From NCBI GenBank assembly GCA_039795875.1, contig JBDKKY010000002.1:1-54341 (forward strand): a stretch of DNA of 54,341 bases, written 5' to 3'. A model generated the notes under the pieces. That model did not search any database. It had not been told where the DNA came from and saw nothing but the letters and a program-made list of their open reading frames with translations. Made by a program: the position numbers and the translations under genes. Each line of letters opens with the position of its first letter. Positions within the stretch are counted from its first letter, which is position 1. Below, one piece after another: positions 265 through 36,015 of the stretch. The stretch is from Candidatus Parcubacteria bacterium (GTDB lineage: Bacteria; Patescibacteriota; Minisyncoccia; Phycocordibacterales; CAIZLB01).

Positions 265-292
265 TTGACAATACAGCTAAATATGATATAAT
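265..292 (+). promoter_or_regulatory. sigma70-like promoter (TTGACA, 16 nt, TATAAT) for G+C-rich cassette 1
   Basis: ttgaca at 265-270 and tataat at 287-292. This predicts a ~120-nt leader before the ATG at 422. Confidence 0.5.
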
Positions 293-421
293 ATTTCCAG
301 CACTTTGAGATGCGTTTCTGTGATACCAGAAGACATTTTTGCCTCTAATTATTGGAGTTAAAGACGTCTTCTGGATTTGGTTGCCATAGTGGCAGCTGAT
401 ACACAGGGACACCCAAACGAA

Positions 422-1207
422 ATGAGCAAAAGAATCGTAAACATCCCAGTTAATCCCAACCGCAGTTATGAAGCGGTGCGAGTGCACGCTCTCATACGCT
501 TAGCCCGGACTATTCCAGGGCCGTGCAGTCTCCAGTTTATTGAACCAGGCGGTGATAACTTCGCTATTCTGGACCAAGGTGCGATGGCCTCAATCGACGC
601 AGAATCTTTGTTGGCGATGAGTCTCGAAAAACAATATGTTCCCTCTGAATCCCAACTCCTTGCTGCCTCCATTATCGCAAACGCACTTAAACATGCCTGG
701 ACCAGGCCAGATCCAATGGATGCTCTCAGGCGTCTCCGGGGCATTTTGAAGACGACCCCGCACATCGGTCTGATCGGTGAGATTACTCGCGCTAACGGGT
801 TCGTCGACAGTCATCATTCCCCTATCGTCGAGAAGCATCTACTGACAGGGGATACAGGAACTGGTCGCATCTGTTGGAGCATAAACCGCGAAGGGTTAAT
901 CCAGATACGTGTCGCCCGCGGCACTGAAGTCGCCGGAGATCGGGTCACCATCCTGATGATAGAGACTAAAGTTCTGGAGAACATGATTATTGATCCCGGA
1001 TTTTCAGTCTCAAGACACAATGCTGGGACGGCCCTGGAAATCCGACATCTGGAAGCTGCCGCCCCCATCCTCGCAGCCTTGCTCAGTCAATCGTCTCTCT
1101 GTGGTCACCCGGTTGATACTGATGACGCTCTTGGTCGGCTCGTTATGAAACTCCCCAAAGACCCAGAAGGTGAAGCGCTCAGGCAGGAAGTATGGGCTAC
1201 ATCCTAA
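422..1207 (+). CDS. orphan hypothetical protein, G+C-rich cassette 1 (alternative TTG start at 377)
   Basis: Frame stays open for ~830 nt in a locally G+C-rich segment, which is too long to be chance at this composition. Amino-acid composition is protein-like. No family motif recognised and no Shine-Dalgarno seen. The stop TAA at 1205-1207 abuts the 65-bp repeat. Confidence 0.6.
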   Translation: MSKRIVNIPVNPNRSYEAVRVHALIRLARTIPGPCSLQFIEPGGDNFAILDQGAMASIDAESLLAMSLEKQYVPSESQLLAASIIANALKHAWTRPDPMDALRRLRGILKTTPHIGLIGEITRANGFVDSHHSPIVEKHLLTGDTGTGRICWSINREGLIQIRVARGTEVAGDRVTILMIETKVLENMIIDPGFSVSRHNAGTALEIRHLEAAAPILAALLSQSSLCGHPVDTDDALGRLVMKLPKDPEGEALRQEVWATS

Positions 1208-1272
1208 GAGGTTCGAATCCTCACCCAACCCTATCAGGTTAAGAAGTGCCCGCGACTTCTTCTCCTGGTGGG
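1208..1272 (+). repeat. 65-bp module copy 1: tRNA 3-prime-fragment look-alike plus terminator stem
   Basis: gaggttcgaatcctcacccaaccctatcaggttaagaagtgcccgcgacttcttctcctggtggg. It matches 1834-1898 at 64 of 65 positions. It contains GAGG-TTCGAAT-CCTC (T-arm-like) followed by ACCCAACC-C (acceptor 3-prime-strand-like). Confidence 0.85.
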
Positions 1273-1281
1273 ATTTTTTTT
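1230..1281 (+). terminator. intrinsic terminator of cassette 1
   Basis: Stem CCUAU-CAGG-(UU)-AAGAAGU, loop GCCCGCG, then ACUUCUU-(CU)-CCUG-GUGGG, followed by a run of 8 T (1274-1281). Confidence 0.7.
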
Positions 1282-1282
1282 A

Positions 1283-1310
1283 TTTAAAATCTTAGATTGA
1301 TAAATATAAT
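1283..1310 (+). promoter_or_regulatory. candidate promoter for cassette 2 (TTTAAA, 16 nt, TATAAT)
   Basis: tttaaa at 1283-1288 and tataat at 1305-1310. An overlapping alternative is TTGATA 1297-1302, 17 nt, TATTGT 1320-1325. The context is AT-rich, so this could be fortuitous. Confidence 0.3.
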
Positions 1311-1365
1311 AATGAATGGTATTGTAACTTTCGTAATCCCGTTAAACCCCAGCCCCTTTTTTACT

Positions 1366-1728
1366 ATGAAAAATCGCTTCCCATATTATCTGGTTCTGAC
1401 CGTGGGTCACACTCAAGCCCGTGAGGATGGAATTCCTTGCCGCTTTTGCATGACTCTGACAATCGGAACGTTTGCTACCGACTTTTTAATCGCTGTCAGT
1501 CCATTTGGCGATATTAATGATCAAGGCGTGGTCGAACCATACATGCATTTGGAAACCTCGATGCTCGAACGTCGCGGTCTCATCACGAAAGCCGGTGAAC
1601 GTTTCCTGATTGACCTGTTCCGTCGGAACATCTATGGGAAGGAAGGTGTAACAGCCGCCTTCTTTCCGTTGATTGAAGGACAGTCCTTACCGCTCTTCTT
1701 GCCTCGTCAATTTGATGAGGTGGCCTAA
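1366..1728 (+). CDS. orphan hypothetical protein, cassette 2 (the ORF track extends it to 1297)
   Basis: The ATG at 1366 gives MKNRFPYYLVLTVGHTQAREDG... (120 aa). Composition is moderately G+C-rich. No recognisable motif and no Shine-Dalgarno. Confidence 0.5.
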   Translation: MKNRFPYYLVLTVGHTQAREDGIPCRFCMTLTIGTFATDFLIAVSPFGDINDQGVVEPYMHLETSMLERRGLITKAGERFLIDLFRRNIYGKEGVTAAFFPLIEGQSLPLFLPRQFDEVA

Positions 1729-1833
1729 TCCCAACCCCTCCAGAACCACATGGCCAAATCTAAGAAAACACCTGTCAAAAAGAAAACCTGGACCACCATG
1801 AAGGTCCAGCCCAAAAAGAAGTGAAATACTTCG

Positions 1834-1898
1834 GAGGTTCGAATCCTCACCCAACCCCATCAGGTTAAGAAGTGCCCGCGACTTCTTCTCCTGGTGGG
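1834..1898 (+). repeat. 65-bp module copy 2: tRNA 3-prime-fragment look-alike plus terminator stem
   Basis: Same 65 bp as 1208-1272, lying 626 bp downstream. The only difference is C at 1858 versus T at 1232. Confidence 0.85.
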
Positions 1899-4682: not shown

Positions 4683-5915
4683 ATGTCTTCGAGACCTCTC
4701 TCCTTTACTATCAAACACAAATCTACAAAATCACGTGCTCGGACAGGTGTGATTAAAACACCACATGGAGATATACAAACTCCAGCTTTTGTTCCTGTGG
4801 GAACTAAAGCAACCATAAAAGGTTTAACCCCAGAGATGGTTGTTTCGCTTGGTGCAGATTGTATTCTGGCAAACACCTATCATTTATATTTGCAACCTGG
4901 TCACGATATTATAAAAAAGCACGGAGGCCTTGGGAAGTTTATGGGTTGGAGTGGTCCCACATTTACCGACTCAGGTGGATTCCAGGCGTTTTCTCTTGGT
5001 GTTGCGCTTGGAAAAAATATCACTAAGTTCACCTCAAAAGCTCGACCTGGATATGACGAAATTGCTATTCAAAAGACTGGTCATAAAGCTGATCCAGATG
5101 CGCCCGCACTTCAGCCAGCCAAAGTAGATGAGCAAGGAGTGATGTTTCGATCTATTATCGATGGAAGCGCTCATTATTTTACACCAACAAAATCTATAGA
5201 AATTCAACAGGCGATCGGTGCCGACATTATGTTTGCATTTGATGAATGTACATCACCTCACGAACCAGTTGAATATCAAAAACGATCACTTGATAGAACC
5301 CACCGATGGGCGATGGAATCTCTAAAGACTCATGTTGATAATCCTGAATCATTTTCAAAGCAAGCTCTGTTTGGAATCATACAAGGCGGACGTCATGAAG
5401 AATTACGCAAAGAAAGTGCAAAAATCATTGCTGAGATGCAATACAACGGAGTCGAGTTTGATGGTTTTGGTATTGGTGGATCATTCGCCAAAGAAGATAT
5501 GATGACAGCGGTAGCTTGGGTCAATGAAATACTTCCAGAAAACAAACCTCGTCACTTACTCGGCATCGGTGAGCCTGCCGACATTGTCATGGCGGTTAAA
5601 GAGGGTTGTGACACATTTGATTGTGTGATGCCAACTCGAAATGCTCGGACAGGAACTGTCTTTATGCGAGATGACTTAGCTGAGTTTGGTTATACAAATC
5701 TGAATATGAGAAATGCCCAGTATGTCGAAGATATGAAGCCAATCGATGCACAATGCGAATGCTATACTTGTAAAAAATATACACGAAGTTATCTGGCCCA
5801 TCTATATCGAGCGCAAGAAATGTTGGCCGGAACTTTGGCTTCAATTCACAACCTGCAGTTCATGATCGATTTTGTAAAAAGACTTCGAGAAAGTATTGAA
5901 AGAGGGGAGATCTAG
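4683..5915 (+). CDS. tgt: queuine tRNA-ribosyltransferase
   Basis: RARTGVIKTPHGDIQTPAFVPVGT, LANTYHLYLQPG, TDSGGFQ, FDCVMPTRNAR and the zinc motif CECYTCKKYTRSYLAHL. Confidence 0.95.
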   Translation: MSSRPLSFTIKHKSTKSRARTGVIKTPHGDIQTPAFVPVGTKATIKGLTPEMVVSLGADCILANTYHLYLQPGHDIIKKHGGLGKFMGWSGPTFTDSGGFQAFSLGVALGKNITKFTSKARPGYDEIAIQKTGHKADPDAPALQPAKVDEQGVMFRSIIDGSAHYFTPTKSIEIQQAIGADIMFAFDECTSPHEPVEYQKRSLDRTHRWAMESLKTHVDNPESFSKQALFGIIQGGRHEELRKESAKIIAEMQYNGVEFDGFGIGGSFAKEDMMTAVAWVNEILPENKPRHLLGIGEPADIVMAVKEGCDTFDCVMPTRNARTGTVFMRDDLAEFGYTNLNMRNAQYVEDMKPIDAQCECYTCKKYTRSYLAHLYRAQEMLAGTLASIHNLQFMIDFVKRLRESIERGEI

Positions 5916-15714: not shown

Positions 15715-16470
15715 ATGAGCGACGTCTTCATGAATATTCCTAAGGAGGGTATGTCTTACAGTGATTTGGACATGAAACACGTAGAAGAGGGATATCTCTC
15801 GATTTATAAGAAGGTTGGCTGCACACCACTACAGGTACAAGAAGAGATCCAGGCCCAGATCGACGTGTCGAGTACGATGACATATGTCGGTCGGTTGGAT
15901 CCTATGGCTGAAGGTTGGTTTGATATAGTGTTCAATGGCGATATGACGCTTAAAGAGAAATTGATGGCCAAAGATAAAACCTATGAGATCGATATACTAT
16001 TTGGATTCAATACAGATACTGGAGACATCTTGGGCAAAGTGGTGGAAAAAGGCAAGGGTGACATCTCACCGGTAACGTTGCGAGCGATTCTGCCTTCGTA
16101 TGTTGGTAAATTTATTTGGAATTATCCAGCTTATTCTTCGCCGATGCTGGGTAAGAAAGAAGGAGATATTATAAAACAAAAGGAAATTGAAATTTATTCT
16201 ATAGATTTTTTAAAGGAAAGAATAATTTCAGCTCAAGATTTATTAGGGGAGATTACAGAAAAACTGAGTTTATCAAAAATGACAGGGGACTTTAGATTGG
16301 ATGAGGTTCAAGGGGCATGGCAGGAAAAATTGGAAACCCTGACAGGGTCTTTTGTTGTTGTAACAATAAAAGTTCATTGTTCTTCAGGAGCATATATGAG
16401 AACATTGGCAGAAAAATTGGGCCAAGAATTATCGACGACGGCGTTGGCTTTTGCTATTAAGAGAGTCTAA
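15715..16470 (+). CDS. truB: tRNA pseudouridine-55 synthase-like protein (short TruB)
   Basis: VGRLDPMAEG catalytic Asp motif, KTYEIDILFGFNTDTGD, and HCSSGAYMRTLAEKLG, which resembles CSKGTYIR of TruB. Confidence 0.75.
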   Translation: MSDVFMNIPKEGMSYSDLDMKHVEEGYLSIYKKVGCTPLQVQEEIQAQIDVSSTMTYVGRLDPMAEGWFDIVFNGDMTLKEKLMAKDKTYEIDILFGFNTDTGDILGKVVEKGKGDISPVTLRAILPSYVGKFIWNYPAYSSPMLGKKEGDIIKQKEIEIYSIDFLKERIISAQDLLGEITEKLSLSKMTGDFRLDEVQGAWQEKLETLTGSFVVVTIKVHCSSGAYMRTLAEKLGQELSTTALAFAIKRV

Positions 16471-16499: not shown

Positions 16500-17645
16500 T
16501 TGTGTTTGAATATAGGGGTGACTAAACCAACCCCTAAAGATATTCATATTTTTATTTCAAATCTGATTGAGAAAGCTATCGCGTTAGATGCATCAGATAT
16601 CCATATCGATCCTCGGGAGAATGCTGTGTATATACGTTTGCGCATTGCAGGCAATTTGCACGAAGCGGGCAGTCTTGAAAATGAATTGCTCGAGCTGTGT
16701 ATCGGCAAGATAAAAGTATTGGCTAGTTTGCGGGGCGACGTTCATGACAGGACGCAGGACGGACGATTTTATTATGTCTCGGATGTCACGGGAGAACGTA
16801 TCGATATACGGGTATCCATTGCCCCGACATTTTTTGGTGAAAACTGTGTGATGCGTTTATTACGTCCACAACTGATGAGATACACCAGCTTCTTTGAACT
16901 GGGTATGACAGAGACTCAGATTAGTCACCTTAAACAGGCATTGCATCGTGGTTCTGGGTTGATTGTTGTTGCTGGTCCGACTGGTTCAGGTAAGACAAGT
17001 ACACTATATGCAACTCTACGTTATCTTACTCATGGTATAGAAGGGACCGGCCTCAGCACTTTGCGTGACGAGTTGCGCACCGAAAGGAATATAGTGACTA
17101 TCGAGGACCCTGTCGAATCTGCTTTGGTTGGAGTGAGGCAGATACAGGTTCAGTCTGAAAAAGGTTTTGGGTTTAAAGAAGCACTGCGTGGAATACTGCG
17201 ACAAGATCCTGATGTGATTATGATTGGTGAGATACGCGACAAAGAAACAGCCTTGGCAGCTATACAAACGGCTTTGACTGGGCACTTGGTACTCACCACT
17301 ATTCATGCACCAAATGCTGCCTCTATTATTCCACGCTTGATCGAGATGGGTATAGAACCTTATATGTTATCGTCCTCCATATCGTTGATATTAAGCCAAA
17401 GATTGGTTCGTGTTTTTGATTACAATATTGGTCTCTATGGAGATCGTAAGGGTGTCTTTGAAATAGTCCCTGTTGATACAGAGCTTCGCAATATGATTCA
17501 TGAAAAGAAGACACCGTACGAGATCGAACGATATATGGCTGAGTCAGGACATTTGTTATTACGTGACGCTTGTGAACATTTGTATACGAGGCATGTTACG
17601 ACACAAGAAGAGATTAACAGAATTAGCTTAGACATATATTCATGA
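16500..17645 (+). CDS. pilB: type IV pilus / T2SS assembly ATPase (PilB/GspE family, short N-terminus)
   Basis: Walker A is GPTGSGKTST, the Asp box/Walker B is IMIGEIRD, and the His box is LTGHLVLTTIHA. A TTG start is listed. Confidence 0.85.
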   Translation: MCLNIGVTKPTPKDIHIFISNLIEKAIALDASDIHIDPRENAVYIRLRIAGNLHEAGSLENELLELCIGKIKVLASLRGDVHDRTQDGRFYYVSDVTGERIDIRVSIAPTFFGENCVMRLLRPQLMRYTSFFELGMTETQISHLKQALHRGSGLIVVAGPTGSGKTSTLYATLRYLTHGIEGTGLSTLRDELRTERNIVTIEDPVESALVGVRQIQVQSEKGFGFKEALRGILRQDPDVIMIGEIRDKETALAAIQTALTGHLVLTTIHAPNAASIIPRLIEMGIEPYMLSSSISLILSQRLVRVFDYNIGLYGDRKGVFEIVPVDTELRNMIHEKKTPYEIERYMAESGHLLLRDACEHLYTRHVTTQEEINRISLDIYS

Positions 17646-18691
17646 TCAAACTTAAAAAATACCAATATCGTTCATTATGGTACAAGAAATTGTATTACTA
17701 TATGCAAGCCGGACAATCTCTCCCTGATGCCATACAGGTATCCGGAGATGAGCCCGAGATCAAGTTGTTACAAACAGAATTGCAAACAGGGAAGAAGTTG
17801 TCTCTCATATGTAAAGACGATCTAAGAGATATTTTCTCGTTCGTGGAGATTGCACTTATGTCAGTTGCAGAGAAGACGGGAAAGATAAAAGATATTTTCT
17901 TATCTCTTAGTGTATTACTCAAAGCTCAGCATGTACAAAAGCAAAAATTAATCTCTGCTGCTATATATCCAGCCATCGTACTTTGTTTGGCTGGTGGATT
18001 ACTTTTGATGATCTTAACCATTATTGTTCCTAAGATTGGTCCATTGTTTTCTGATATGCCGTCTTTGCCTATATCAACTAGAATTCTCTTGTCCGCCAGT
18101 GATCATGTTAGAAATTGGTGGTGGATAGATATGACTATTACGATCCTGATGGTCACTGCACACTACAGTTTTCGAGGGCAAGGGACATATAGAAAGTTTT
18201 TGGAGATAGTGCGCCGTAATTTTCTATTTCGCACGCCGTATGTAAAAAATATATACATGTTATGGCATATAGAAAAATGGATGCAAGTCATATGTGTTTG
18301 TCTGCAGACACGTATTTCTTTTCCTGAATCTCTGGGTATGGCTGGCGAGTCATTGAACAATGCATTCATGCAACGAGAATTTACCATTGTCGAACACCAG
18401 GTTCGTGAGGGTAATACCTGTGCAGACTCGCTACGGGTCATGGACCATCGGATCTATAAGATATTACAAGGTTGGGAATCGGTGATCAGGTCGGGAGAGC
18501 GCACAGGTGCACTACTCGAAGTGTTTTTGGTTTGTCATGAACACACACAATCCCAACTGGAAGAATCTCTTGATAAAGCACAAAAGACGATAGAGCCGGC
18601 GCTGATCGTTGCTGTAGGACTTATGGTGTTGTCTATTTGCCTGTCAATTATTTTACCAATGTATCAATTAACTCAATCACTTAATGCATGA
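17642..18691 (+). CDS. pilC: type IV pilus / T2SS platform protein (PilC/GspF family)
   Basis: 349 aa with two T2SS-F-like repeats and three TM spans. It has ATGA overlaps with both neighbouring genes. Confidence 0.8.
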   Translation: MIKLKKYQYRSLWYKKLYYYMQAGQSLPDAIQVSGDEPEIKLLQTELQTGKKLSLICKDDLRDIFSFVEIALMSVAEKTGKIKDIFLSLSVLLKAQHVQKQKLISAAIYPAIVLCLAGGLLLMILTIIVPKIGPLFSDMPSLPISTRILLSASDHVRNWWWIDMTITILMVTAHYSFRGQGTYRKFLEIVRRNFLFRTPYVKNIYMLWHIEKWMQVICVCLQTRISFPESLGMAGESLNNAFMQREFTIVEHQVREGNTCADSLRVMDHRIYKILQGWESVIRSGERTGALLEVFLVCHEHTQSQLEESLDKAQKTIEPALIVAVGLMVLSICLSIILPMYQLTQSLNA

Positions 18692-19869
18692 TAAGACACA
18701 TATATAAGAGAGGCTTTAGTTTAATCGAGATTATCCTGGGCTTGGCCGTATTCTTGATATTAATGGTATCAATCTTTCAATATTCTGGATCGTTGTTGCG
18801 GGGCTTTCGGCCGGCAGCCGTGGTTTCGTTCGATTCGACATTTCCCAATGGCCTAGACCTGTATCGGTATGGAGAACCTGTTTGTGACATAGATCAAGAC
18901 GTGACTATTGAGAGACAGATTGATTTGTCGAGCCTGATCTCGACCAGTACACCGATAACCAGTATGCATTACTTTGGTAATGATATATTCGTATTCACTA
19001 CTGATTCAGCCTCGACCAGTCAACCCGATGTATTCATCATGCGTCAAAACGTAAACGTGTGGGAGTTAGTGATCTCAAAAGACGTTGGCCCTGGCATTCA
19101 AGACAGTGTCTTATCATTTCCATACTTATATGTCGCAAACACCAGTGTCAACAGTCATGTCAAGGTTCTGCAGATTGATAATAACGCAATCATTGAGGTA
19201 CAAAATATAAAAATCGATTCGCTCGCGGCAAGTAATTCTATGCCACGACGACTTTCCGTTTTCGGTGACCATTTGATGCTTGGTGCCGAAAAGAGTAACA
19301 GTGGAGGGGAATTGTTTGCTTTGCCTATCAATCACCAGAATGGGAAATTGTCCCTACCTACACACTCAATCGAACTTGGTGGTCAGGCACATGTCGCGAG
19401 AGTTATCGGTAAAGATCTATTGATCGCCAACTCTGCTGACCCGGAGATGCGAGTTATTGATAATAATTTTCTGGAGAAGGCCGACTATGATGCACCACTA
19501 ACATTGGGAAACGGAAAAAGCGTTTTGAGTTTGTATCCGTACGCTGTCTTGGGTAGAACGCTAGGGTCAGGAGAGCTTACTCTTCTCGATATATCCACAA
19601 CCTCGATCCATTCTATTGACACAAATAGAACAAATGGATCTGTCGATGCTTTACAGTCCCTGGCTGGTGGAGCACCAAACCTGTTTATGGCCCTGACCTC
19701 AAACGCAGACAAAGAAATTCAATTTTGGAATGTAGGGGAGGATCGAACCTTTCATCTTGAAAGCTTTATCAATCTGCCTGCTCGTACAACTTCCTACCTA
19801 TGTTTCGACAAACAAATTTTTGTCGCTGTACTTATAAACGAAAGACCTAATCTGATTATTTTAAAATAA
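18688..19869 (+). CDS. large prepilin-type protein (393 aa)
   Basis: N-terminus YKRG/FSLIEIILGLAVFLILMV is a class III (prepilin) signal with Glu at +5. A long beta-rich domain follows. Confidence 0.65.
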   Translation: MIRHIYKRGFSLIEIILGLAVFLILMVSIFQYSGSLLRGFRPAAVVSFDSTFPNGLDLYRYGEPVCDIDQDVTIERQIDLSSLISTSTPITSMHYFGNDIFVFTTDSASTSQPDVFIMRQNVNVWELVISKDVGPGIQDSVLSFPYLYVANTSVNSHVKVLQIDNNAIIEVQNIKIDSLAASNSMPRRLSVFGDHLMLGAEKSNSGGELFALPINHQNGKLSLPTHSIELGGQAHVARVIGKDLLIANSADPEMRVIDNNFLEKADYDAPLTLGNGKSVLSLYPYAVLGRTLGSGELTLLDISTTSIHSIDTNRTNGSVDALQSLAGGAPNLFMALTSNADKEIQFWNVGEDRTFHLESFINLPARTTSYLCFDKQIFVAVLINERPNLIILK

Positions 19870-19870
19870 T

Positions 19871-20407
19871 ATGTTAGACAAATCACAATACAAACTGCAG
19901 AGGCAGGGTATAACATTGATTGAACTCATACTCTATATGAGTCTGTTTGCGATATTGGTTAGTATTGTGTTTTCGACAGTCTTTTATTTACAAAAGTTAT
20001 TTACCAATAAAAAGATTGAATATATTGTTAGAGCTGAAATATATGAACAATTGAATCTGCTACAACAACACCTGGTTTTAACTCAGAGAGTGGAGGTAGG
20101 GCCTGAGGATATCACTCTATATATGTATGGCTCGACTGACCCGCGAGCTGTAGTGAAGATCCGCCAGTATATAGACGGTGGGCGCTTGGTCATGGAATAT
20201 CTACACAATGACCCTGGTTTAGATAAGAAAATATATGTACACGAATACACCGTCTTGCAGGATTTGTCATTCAGCCTCATAGACATTGTGGGTGGTCTCA
20301 ATACATTTTCTCGCCAGAGTGTCCTGGCTGCACACATAACATGGAAAAATAGCAGACAAAAAACTATACTTATAGATGAAACTCTATACATACCAAATCT
20401 TGAGTGA
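19871..20407 (+). CDS. prepilin-type minor (pseudo)pilin
   Basis: N-terminus QRQG/ITLIELILYMSLFAILV is prepilin-like. Confidence 0.6.
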   Translation: MLDKSQYKLQRQGITLIELILYMSLFAILVSIVFSTVFYLQKLFTNKKIEYIVRAEIYEQLNLLQQHLVLTQRVEVGPEDITLYMYGSTDPRAVVKIRQYIDGGRLVMEYLHNDPGLDKKIYVHEYTVLQDLSFSLIDIVGGLNTFSRQSVLAAHITWKNSRQKTILIDETLYIPNLE

Positions 20408-34688: not shown

Positions 34689-34716
34689 TTGACACAAAAT
34701 CCATATGTCGTATAAT
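34689..34716 (+). promoter_or_regulatory. consensus sigma70 promoter (TTGACA, 16 nt, TATAAT) of the G+C-rich secreted-protein gene
   Basis: ttgaca at 34689-34694 and tataat at 34711-34716. AGGAG at 34763-34767 lies in the ~60-nt leader. Confidence 0.5.
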
Positions 34717-34782
34717 GTATTGTAGGCATACCCCTGTACCTTGATATCGTTTCAAGCGTATTAGGAGTTGCATCTACACCCT

Positions 34783-35922
34783 ATGAACACCACCACACAG
34801 GCCAGAGTGATCTGGCTGGTTTGCCTTCTGGCGTCGCTCTTCGGAGTTGCACAGAAGGGTATGGGAGACCCGACCAATGCCGTTGAGGCAGTAGTCGTGG
34901 CCGAACGTCTGAGCCTCGAGAGGCCAGACCCCCGCAAGCCATTCACCTCGTGGATGGCTCCAACAGGAGAGGAGGCCTCACAGCCAAGTCTCTACCTCAC
35001 TGAGCCCAAAGCTCAGATCAACAACCCTAACACGCGGTTCTATATTTCAGTGCTGATCCGGTTTCGCATCAAAGCGACAGGGGAATGGGTAGCTATCAAG
35101 CAGCCCAATCCAACGAACCTCTCGTTTAGTTTCAATGGCCGAAAGTATCGTGAAGGTTATGCGCCCGCTTCGGTGGGCGGCGCCTTCAACATACTCGCGA
35201 CCAACTCGGTCTATACCGATGTGGCTACTCCAGACCCGAACCCGACAACGGGGAAGGCTTGGATCTATGGCGTCCGAAATGGCGCCATTGTCACAACGGC
35301 TGGGACGAAAGTCTCGTTGACTGAAGCGGACGGAGCGGTACGCCGCAATCCAGGAGAAGGCGATTTCCTGGTAAACCCAAATGTCGGTCTGGAGATCGAC
35401 GAATTCTGGGTGGTAGGGGCTGAACAGAAGCTGTCAACAGGATTTGTGAACGCTGCTAACAACACGTTCGCCTTCTGGCAGTCGTTCAATATCCCCTTTG
35501 ATATGGTGATCGAGGTCACGAATTCGGTTGCCGTTGATGCGGCACTGAACACCCAAAACGGCTGTCGGTACTTTCCCGACTACGGAGCTTTCCGTTTTCC
35601 CACGATATACTGTGGGACACAGGATGGACCAGTCCGCCCTGTGCTCGAGCTTGCAACCGACTTGCGCCGCCTGACTCTCCGACATGGAAAGTTTGGTGAT
35701 TGGATCGTCCAAGGCTCTGGAGACATGGCCTCGGGGTGGTTCAACCTCCCCGGCTACAAGTTCCAGGCTCCACCGGACTTCTTCCTTGAAGATCGTCGAG
35801 ATATGACCATCGAGCTCCCCGCTCCTGGTCAGATCACGACACCTCCGCCAACGAGGATGTATTTTAGGGCATACTCGCCGAAACCCTACACACCGCCGTA
35901 TGTGCTGAGTTCACCTCCCTGA
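34783..35922 (+). CDS. orphan secreted protein encoded by a G+C-rich insert (the ORF track TTG start is at 34768)
   Basis: 379 aa. Signal-peptide-like N-terminus MNTTTQARVIWLVCLLASLFGVAQ, a Pro-rich C-terminus, G+C strikingly above both flanks, and no family motif recognised. Confidence 0.6.
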   Translation: MNTTTQARVIWLVCLLASLFGVAQKGMGDPTNAVEAVVVAERLSLERPDPRKPFTSWMAPTGEEASQPSLYLTEPKAQINNPNTRFYISVLIRFRIKATGEWVAIKQPNPTNLSFSFNGRKYREGYAPASVGGAFNILATNSVYTDVATPDPNPTTGKAWIYGVRNGAIVTTAGTKVSLTEADGAVRRNPGEGDFLVNPNVGLEIDEFWVVGAEQKLSTGFVNAANNTFAFWQSFNIPFDMVIEVTNSVAVDAALNTQNGCRYFPDYGAFRFPTIYCGTQDGPVRPVLELATDLRRLTLRHGKFGDWIVQGSGDMASGWFNLPGYKFQAPPDFFLEDRRDMTIELPAPGQITTPPPTRMYFRAYSPKPYTPPYVLSSPP

Positions 35923-35975
35923 CGTCTGAACCGCGTCAACCGATGGCCCAAAAATAAGCCCATCAAAAATTCACC

Positions 35976-36015
35976 CCGCCCGCTTCTGGCAACAGAAGTG
36001 AGCGGTGTTTTTTTT
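35976..36015 (+). terminator. intrinsic terminator of the G+C-rich gene
   Basis: CCGCCCGCTTCTG-GCAA-CAGAAGTGAGCGG stem-loop with a GNRA-like loop, followed by T8 (36008-36015). Confidence 0.7.

Follow-up and report, generated by a model that had tools for sequence, protein, structure and literature searches.

What accounts for two nearly identical pieces of DNA that each look like the T-arm end of a tRNA fused to a transcription terminator, in a region where no tRNA gene is apparent? The question is raised by a stretch of 54,341 nucleotides from a Candidatus Parcubacteria bacterium (NCBI GenBank assembly GCA_039795875.1, contig JBDKKY010000002.1; hereafter the window, which is the entire contig), in which the segment at 1208–1272 is repeated at 1834–1898. 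An earlier note on this DNA had proposed two explanations, either scars resembling attachment (att) sites, left by elements that integrate into a tRNA gene, or a tRNA-mimicking RNA element at the 3' end of each cassette transcript. The relatives of the threonyl-tRNA synthetase (ThrRS) encoded in the window are from Patescibacteria, the nearest metagenome-assembled genomes (MAGs) are labelled Candidatus Saccharibacteria, and the window is a chromosome piece of Saccharibacteria (Patescibacteria). Between tyrS and thrS it contains two segments at 48–55% GC, in a genome at ~40% GC. Each copy of the repeat is a 3' module that closes an accessory cassette complete in itself and composed of a promoter, a leader, an orphan open reading frame (ORF1 or ORF2), a hairpin that mimics a tRNA T-arm, and a terminator.

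The two copies are identical at 64 of 65 positions, the sole mismatch being T1232 in copy 1 and C1858 in copy 2, and a direct-repeat search extended the match to 1208–1294 and 1834–1920 (spacing, 626 bp), the T-run being where identity decays. RNAfold gave both copies the same structure, in which a GAGG/CCTC hairpin with the loop UUCGAAU is followed by a spacer, a terminator hairpin, and a U-run (minimum free energy, −28.5 kcal/mol with z = −4.3 for copy 1 and −30.2 kcal/mol with z = −4.5 for copy 2; shuffles folding equally well, 0 of 200). The T-arm mimic of copy 1 (GAGG-TTCGAAT-CCTC; 1208–1222, plus strand) is flanked by unpaired A1207 and A1223. That of copy 2 ((G)GAGG-TTCGAAT-CCTC(A); 1833–1849, plus strand; core hairpin, 1834–1848) has a G at −1, giving GGAGG...CCTCA, and the 5' flanks of the two are unlike (ctaa versus ttcg). 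The stem closed by G53–C61 and the 7-nt loop are those of a T-arm, in which the stem has 5 bp, the window copies having 4 bp and one mismatch. The spacer of copy 1 (ACCCAAC; 1223–1229, plus strand), which the earlier note took for an acceptor strand, is C/A-rich and unpaired in the fold; it is not conserved across the cassette families described below, each of which has some C/A-rich tract at this position. The intrinsic terminators occupy 1230–1281 in copy 1 (plus strand; a 9-bp outer and a 7-bp inner stem at 1230–1272, then A and T8) and 1856–1903 in copy 2 (plus strand; stem at 1856–1898, then TTTTT), both on the sense strand and 3' of a gene. They were called from the fold and from the T-run read directly; a simple terminator scanner listed neither, presumably because of the internal loop. 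The mismatch at T1232/C1858 swaps a U–G for a C–G pair within the outer terminator stem, and GGTTCGAATCC has exact matches at these two sites only in the window. The repeat with its T-loop hairpin and terminator, the substitution that preserves pairing, and the divergence of the upstream sequences are all as the earlier note had described them.

Comparison with related loci defined which part of this module is shared. In L001–L003 (ThrRS identity, 96%), ~2.4 kb of cassettes fill the tyrS/thrS gap, and in L008, a 3-kb contig reached through the only homologues of ORF2, cassettes are likewise found at tyrS/thrS; in L004–L007 (ThrRS identity, 89% and 86%) the gap is ~96 bp and empty. The first cassette of L001, L003, and L008 (A) encodes a basic-tailed protein and the second (B) a homologue of ORF2, and each terminates in GGAGGTTCGAATCCTCC, downstream of which stands CGCTATCCGCCGCGTTAAGCGGATTTT in A versus CACGAAATACCCACCGTGTAATGTGGGTTTTT in B, both unlike the window. 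Because the sequence 3' of the hairpin differs among the window, A, and B, the shared unit is the T-arm hairpin and not a tRNA 3' half. For the same reason, the proposal in the earlier note that ACCCAACC-C represents an acceptor strand plus discriminator, possibly of a tRNA-His-like molecule, does not hold, since homologous cassettes have the unrelated CGCTATCCGC, CACGAAATACCC, and ACGCCCCATCAC at that place.

A second hotspot was identified in the infC/PLD gap (L001 4373–5307 and L003 4358–5295), which contains a two-gene operon for small membrane proteins. Element C lies 5–6 nt after the first ORF (GGCGG-TTCAATC-CCGTC in L003 and GGCAG-TTCAATC-CTGCC in L001) in an intercistronic position with no terminator, and is thus a tag independent of a terminator. 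Element D overlaps the TAG of the second ORF (GACGG-TTCGAAC-CCGTC in L003 and GACGG-TTCAATC-CCGTC in L001), a promoterless second cistron, and a terminator comes next. This site is empty in L004, and in L007 it is occupied by another GC-rich orphan gene without a T-arm. The terminators differ among the A, B, D, and window types.

The contigs with this homologue of ORF1 (P0125; L396 and L397) carry tyrS, the same promoter and leader, and a 56%-identical ORF. In L396 the homologue (identity, 41% in protein and 56% in DNA) ends in TAA-GAGGTTCGAATCCTCACCCAATCC, identical at 26 of 27 positions, TAA-GAGGTTCGAATCCTCACCCAA being the retained 3' end of a 41%-identical ORF homologue; the T-arm mimic of copy 1 therefore recurs behind this ORF. 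Both contigs break inside the module, as would be expected were the module repeated in the genome of L396 too. In the sister strains the two cassettes have differing terminators, whereas in the window, and probably in the genome of L396, the same module stands behind unrelated cargos. Moreover, in cassette 2 of the window, what is left of an A-type basic tail separates ORF2 from the hairpin. The shared module on unrelated cargos and the tail remnant suggest recombination or gene conversion between the 3' ends of cassettes, which would have met at the T-arm that they share, and the near identity of the window copies points to copying, recombination, or gene conversion between neighbouring cassette 3' ends, not to duplication of a tRNA end by an integrase.

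We scanned 1.1 Mb, comprising the window, L001–L008, and 80 thrS loci of Patescibacteria, for T-arm-shaped hairpins outside the tRNAs called by ARAGORN. Those placed behind a stop codon occurred in cassettes only (two in the window, four each in L001 and L003, and two each in L002 and L008), L396 providing a further instance besides the scan. They tag six ORF families (1, 2/B, A, C, D, and K-tail), always on the strand of the ORF, and start at −1 to +14 nt relative to the cassette stop codon. Among 11 aligned instances, 96% of the stem cells are paired, the exceptions being confined to the two window copies, at their outermost pair, and three of the five stem pairs have changed on both sides (for example, GGAGG/CCTCC, GACGG/CCGTC, and GGCAG/CTGCC). 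When the partner strand was slid by 1–3 columns, pairing fell to 52–68%, and the covariation score was reached by none of 500 shuffles. The orthologous C elements differ by three stem substitutions with pairing kept (GGCGG/CCGTC in L003 versus GGCAG/CTGCC in L001), and the G·U variants are compatible with the coding strand only. G53, T54, T55, C56, A58, and C61 are invariant in all 11 instances, and the loop varies only at 57 (G/A), 59, and 60, which are the variable positions of tRNA T-loops. The surroundings change much more rapidly. The DNA of thrS differs by 8–14% among the strains, and the cargo ORFs diverge faster (DNA identity, 53% for cassette A between L003 and L008, and 68–71% between ORF2 and its homologues); the spacer between stop codon and hairpin is unalignable across strains, and the promoter region of B is 62–77% identical, while the hairpin is either unchanged or altered with compensation only. 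As judged from these alignments, purifying selection acts on the pairing of the T-arm mimic and on its T-loop signature, whichever terminator follows. The covariance analysis across homologous loci that had been suggested in the earlier note thus yielded compensatory stem changes around an invariant T-loop signature, and its second option, the tRNA-mimicking 3' element, fits both these changes and the recurrence on the coding strand after every cassette ORF.

The reading that we prefer, and to which we give a little better than an even chance, is that the T-arm mimic acts within the cassette mRNA and is selected as a 3'-end handle for tRNA-handling proteins and/or as a block to exonucleases. 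The first 15–17 nt of the module would be transcribed as part of the cassette mRNA, and after departure of the terminating ribosome the hairpin would fold with a 4–5-bp stem, the G53–C61 closure, and the loop U54 U55 C56 R57 A58 N N, the remainder of the module serving as an ordinary strong intrinsic terminator. The hairpin could then be bound or modified by a TruB-type pseudouridine-55 synthase, by a methylase forming 5-methyluridine at position 54, and possibly by nucleases of the RNase P or RNase Z type, and/or its compactness could block 3' exonucleases; the 3' end of each cistron would in this way be defined and stabilized. The alignments and folds show the anatomy, conservation, covariation, and position of the element, whereas transcription through it, its recognition by tRNA enzymes, and the stabilizing or processing effect are inferred. 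The reading draws on the transcription-unit anatomy, with its consensus promoters and strong terminator folds, and on element C, which stands between two cistrons without a terminator. The window itself encodes a candidate for the protein that would read the hairpin, a TruB homologue at 15715–16470 (TruB_N, E = 2e-14, above the Pfam cut-off). Isolated T-arm stem-loops are substrates of TruB/Pus4 (PMC13492117), and in plant mitochondria the 3' ends of mRNAs are shaped by tRNA-like elements containing GGTTCRANYCC (PMC1920247).

An effect of the hairpin on termination or recycling may also come into play, because it lies within the footprint of the terminating ribosome. Ribosomes in the course of termination can be stalled by hairpins that lie no more than ~15 nt from a stop codon, and the hairpins of repetitive extragenic palindromic sequences and bacterial interspersed mosaic elements (REP/BIME) act as mRNA stabilizers. 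The T-arm mimic has in common with REP/BIME that a hairpin in the transcript strand closely follows the stop codon (0–14 nt) and is sometimes intercistronic. However, REP/BIME are genome-wide, multi-copy palindromes with no T-loop signature, whereas the tag was seen only on orphan-gene cassettes, with two copies in 54 kb of the window and, in the related loci, on cassettes alone.

Several observations weigh against our preferred reading. The stems of the window copies, 4 bp with an A·A or G·A mismatch, are shorter than a true T-stem, and TruB binding is reported to be sensitive to stem length (PMC13492117). Since no acceptor-like helix encloses the T-arm, classical recognition by RNase P or RNase Z is doubtful. 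In L398, which has a more distant homologue of ORF1, the stop codon is followed by a plain hairpin instead of a T-arm, and a third GC-rich cassette in the window (34689–36012) also lacks a T-arm; the tag is therefore not obligatory, and is conserved within one clade. The sample is small (about six related lineages), and because several instances are orthologues, their counts are not independent. Furthermore, ACGCCCCA.. and CACG..CCCACC, the tracts that types C, D, and B have behind the hairpin, look like the 3' ends of genuine tRNAs, the exact 17-mer GGAGGTTCGAATCCTCC is often met in genuine tRNAs for Tyr, Ser, Gln, and Arg, and a hairpin resembling a variable arm (GAAGT-loop-ACTTC) abuts the T-arm in cassette A and in window copy 2. 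On these three grounds, an origin from tRNA gene ends is plausible even if the present role differs; origin and present role are separate questions.

We weighed three other explanations. The one that survives best, although we consider it unlikely, places the function at the DNA level. According to this proposal, the hairpin, folded as single-stranded or double-stranded DNA, is a recombination site at the junction of cassettes, comparable to integron attC or to the ends of IS200/IS605-type elements, and is acted on by a recombinase encoded elsewhere. It would account for the presence of one hairpin behind every ORF, including the promoterless second cistron with element D, and for the mosaic loci, in which the same T-arm joins different left cargos to different right terminators (cassette 2 of the window, for example, combines a B-type ORF, an A-type tail, and a window-type terminator). 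The cassette content is also strain-variable at two hotspots, both of which are empty in relatives at 86–89% ThrRS identity. The resemblance to integron cassettes extends to small ORFs of unknown function in one orientation, with a structured repeat after each and strain-variable content, and ACCCAAC fits the attC inverse core RYYYAAC. On the other hand, the only GTT site (GTTAAGA) violates GTTRRRY and is unpaired with this core, so that a matching partner was not found, and the element has 17 nt compared with the 57–141 nt of attC. Neither a recombinase nor IntI, attI, or Pc was found in the window or related loci, and no copy of the hairpin was found at the left border of any cassette array or at the empty sites. 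Unlike integron cassettes, most of these cassettes have their own promoter and terminator. The arrays are, in addition, largely syntenic and vertically inherited (A–B in L001, L003, and L008, and cassette 1 in the window and L396), and conservation in the loop falls on exactly the positions of the tRNA T-loop fold, something for which there is no obvious reason in a DNA site.

The first option of the earlier note, that the repeats are att-type scars, that is, tRNA 3' fragments displaced in successive integrations with crossover in the T-loop or T-stem, failed in each test run, and we regard it as improbable. The hairpin is a perfect T-arm whose 17-mer is frequent in real tRNAs, the cargo has a foreign composition (GC content at third codon positions, GC3), direct repeats flank a 626-bp unit, tracts like an acceptor 3' strand follow the T-arm in types C, D, and B, and the breaks of L396 and L397 within the module point to a repeat there; all of these speak for such scars. 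As in the fragments at attR/attL of islands in tRNA genes (Islander-type, PMC4383910; tRNA gene fragments, PMC9897764), sequence from the T-arm onward is followed by a terminator and arranged in direct repeats around foreign DNA. Such islands, however, are made by an integrase and defined by a regenerated intact tRNA together with the displaced fragment (PMC4383910). ARAGORN called neither a tRNA nor a tmRNA in the 54 kb of the window, nor in L001, L002, and L003 (21.7 kb around the L001/L003 cassettes). At Rfam gathering scores nothing was found in the window, and E ≤ 10 over 200–2000 gave noise only. The upstream complementary acceptor strand (GGTTGGG) was not found, and the fold leaves the flanks of the T-arm unpaired, so that there is no complete tRNA-like structure in which an acceptor helix encloses the T-arm; that neither copy is an intact tRNA had been recognized in the earlier note. 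The empty tyrS/thrS and infC/PLD gaps of L004/L007 (~100 bp) contain no tRNA and no GGTTCRA motif, and recombinase Pfam domains were absent from the gene tables of L001/L003 and from the 30 window ORFs scanned; the cassettes themselves measure 0.6–1.0 kb and contain a single orphan ORF each.

A search for a tRNA sharing the 3' half, also suggested in the earlier note, was likewise negative. The 23-mer GAGGTTCGAATCCTCACCCAACC had no match in 185,579 species genomes (including the two closest MAGs, but not the complete genome of the host), nor in JGI metagenomes and IMG/VR. Merged patterns for the A/B-type and C/D-type modules gave no match in viral contigs. A generic pattern (T-arm + CCYAYC + GTGGGNNTTT) recovered all known modules, and its other matches, in IMG/VR and, among the matches listed, in JGI, were real tRNAs or tRNA-Lys fragments only. 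Classical scars do exist in metagenome contigs, as tRNA-Lys 3' fragments with their native terminator, repeated 1.4–7 kb apart (L341, 1131–1197 and 2518–2585; L285; L310); among the matches listed, however, these begin in the anticodon loop with no stop codon directly before them, whereas the window element starts at the T-stem flush with the stop. The sequence behind the T-arm is not shared between cassette families, and inert DNA would not show compensatory changes and an untouched T-loop beside fast-diverging flanks, as the element does in place. A link to tyrS or tRNA-Tyr also suggested itself, as tyrS is the neighbour of the locus and CTTC+GGAGGTTCGAATCCTC is restricted to class II tRNA-Tyr/Ser, but it was set aside since T-arm tags with other stems occur at infC/PLD.

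The remaining alternative, a sharper version of our preferred explanation in which cleavage by RNase P or RNase Z at the hairpin produces the mature 3' end or separates cistrons as in t-elements, draws on the intercistronic position of element C and on the GGTTCRANYCC motif, which also finds plant mitochondrial t-elements after ORFs at mapped 3' ends (PMC1920247), but is very doubtful, for the acceptor-like helix measured by RNase P and Z is absent beside the T-arm and cofolding of the leader with the 3' module gave no long-range pairing (−77.3 versus −75.0 kcal/mol separately). A split tRNA-like fold assembled by pairing of the 5' leader with the 3' module was rejected on the same cofolding, which gave no gain.

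The selected handle that we prefer has precedents in these RNA systems. Like the t-elements (Forner et al. 2007, PMC1920247), which lie downstream or upstream of ORFs, are cleaved by RNase P/Z, and are associated with 3'-end formation, it would carry GGTTCRANYCC in the mRNA just after an ORF. The t-elements have an acceptor-like stem and experimentally mapped ends, whereas the window element is a T-arm alone with a separate intrinsic terminator in a bacterial host. With the pseudouridylation sites of mRNAs that mimic a T-arm (Pus4/TRUB1; PMC13492117) it shares a stem-loop whose 7-nt loop bears the GUUCNANNC signature, and the same genome encodes a TruB homologue. Those targets have been described for the eukaryotic enzymes, TruB of bacteria being reported as more stem-length selective (PMC13492117), and the window element differs from them in being non-coding, located after stop codons, and conserved as a module. 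We would class the feature as a new and minimal form of tRNA-like mRNA cis element, with a putative function and found so far in one Saccharibacteria clade. A broader proposal, which we would sooner doubt than assert, is that this Saccharibacteria lineage tags the 3' end of every orphan-cassette ORF with a minimal T-arm, as a bacterial counterpart of mitochondrial t-elements that couples the mRNAs to the tRNA machinery for processing, stabilization, or sorting. The tag and the conserved structured leader would then frame an 'expression slot' whose coding sequence could freely diverge or be exchanged.

A literature search for elements resembling tRNAs, either in Saccharibacteria or in the 3' untranslated regions of bacteria, returned none. 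Provided that the tag acts at the RNA level, it would be the first bare T-arm mimic on a bacterial chromosome found in that search to serve as an mRNA cis element, and would tie tRNA enzymes to the fate of mRNA in a minimal-genome organism. The combination of a stop codon and a T-arm outside a tRNA also offers a search handle for rapidly evolving accessory genes of the candidate phyla radiation that are otherwise invisible to homology searches. For annotation, it cautions that a tRNA 3' fragment beside foreign-looking DNA is not always an integration scar.

The remaining parts of the two cassettes are as follows. The start of tyrS is at the left end of the window on the minus strand, as read from the sequence and confirmed by synteny; the DNA left of cassette 1 is thus taken up by the promoter and start of tyrS, which begins ~60 bp left of the cassette 1 promoter, and contains no regenerated tRNA; thrS starts at 2646 and tgt at 4683. 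The promoter of cassette 1 (265–292, plus strand) consists of TTGACA, 16 nt, and TG-n-TATAAT, matches the consensus at 12 of 12 positions with an extended −10, and is conserved in L396. It is followed by a structured 5' leader (293–388, plus strand) with a long hairpin at 326–374, recognized as an inverted repeat and by RNAalifold, which predicted 41 pairs for the window, L396, and L398, seven of them with compensatory changes. From the −35 element to the ATG, promoter and leader are ~93% identical between the window and L396, compared with 56% for the ORF and 75% for the adjacent 5' end of tyrS. The leader region at 293–421 (~130 nt; L396, 1618–1749; L398, 632–786) is far better kept than ORF1, and it recurs with compensatory changes in L398 at another locus, after rplK. 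It has no match in Rfam and is a candidate for a new cis-regulatory leader.

ORF1 (389–1207, plus strand; GC, 52%; stop codon TAA at 1205–1207) starts either at GTG 389, as homology indicates, or at ATG 422; its N-terminus aligns with P0125 from GTG 389 onward. The promoter of cassette 2 (TTGATA, 17 nt, TG-n-TATTGT; 1297–1325, plus strand) aligns with TTGACG..TATTGT upstream of cassette B in L001, L003, and L008, and ORF2 (1366–1728, plus strand; 120 amino acids) belongs to the cassette-B family. Behind its TAA and in frame with it lies a lysine-rich mini-ORF or tail remnant of 24 codons (1750–1824, plus strand); its homologue in the cassette-A genes of L001, L003, and L008 is the basic C-terminal tail with the hairpin. 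The end of the mini-ORF forms the hairpin GAAGT-GAAAT-ACTTC (1818–1832) that abuts the T-arm of copy 2, and is placed as the variable arm of a class II tRNA would be.

Because of the excess of third-codon-position substitutions, as seen in ORF2, the cargo ORFs are regarded as real coding genes. Their GC3 is 50–62%, compared with 31–34% in host genes. Neither ORF1 nor ORF2 had a match in Pfam, PHROG, or PADLOC; ORF1 has only two homologues among 1.84 billion representatives, and an exhaustive HMMER search gave one real homologue (P0125; identity, 41%), while the ORF2 family has only three members in 5.8 billion proteins. The AlphaFold models of the cargo proteins are mediocre (pLDDT, 63), and Foldseek yielded no PDB match below E = 0.1. 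Weak partial matches to tRNA-splicing endonuclease subunits (probability, ≤0.28) were dismissed, and a similarity of the ORF1 N-terminus to SdrD_B repeats was short and uninformative. A blastn search of 206–1930 against plasmids and phages gave no match. Phage morons are autonomous promoter–ORF–terminator units of deviant base composition inserted between genes, and the cassettes resemble them in being self-contained, of deviant GC, strain-variable, and apparently accessory in function. They differ from morons in that they are chromosomal and lie between housekeeping aminoacyl-tRNA synthetase genes, not in a prophage; morons are not known to bear a tRNA-like tag.

Outside the two cassettes, a toxin–antitoxin-like pair at 1940–2614 (Unstab_antitox domain; weak ParE-like match) fills the rest of the tyrS/thrS hotspot, a part occupied in the sister strains by a zeta-toxin-like kinase and a histidine phosphatase instead. 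Just past the last cassette terminator, a small hairpin (ACCCCACRAGGGGG) occurs at 5303–5315 in L003 and at 1881–1893 in L008, which differ both in strain and in hotspot; the window and all other loci lack it, and it may be a border or footprint motif. The third cassette of the window is at 55–56% GC and is likewise orphan, with a perfect TTGACA-16-TATAAT promoter (34689–34716), an ORF of 379 codons (34783–35922) whose product has a signal-peptide-like N-terminus, and a strong terminator near 35973–36012; behind its stop codon, a short ATGGCCCAAAAATAA resembles the start of the mini-ORF at 1750. Apart from these features and from a type IV pilus-like set at 16500–20407 (T2SSE ATPase, T2SSF platform, and two prepilin-type proteins; genes for an acyltransferase and a glycosyltransferase function come next), the window is ordinary housekeeping chromosome, and the 30 further ORFs that were scanned are housekeeping genes, with the truB homologue among them.

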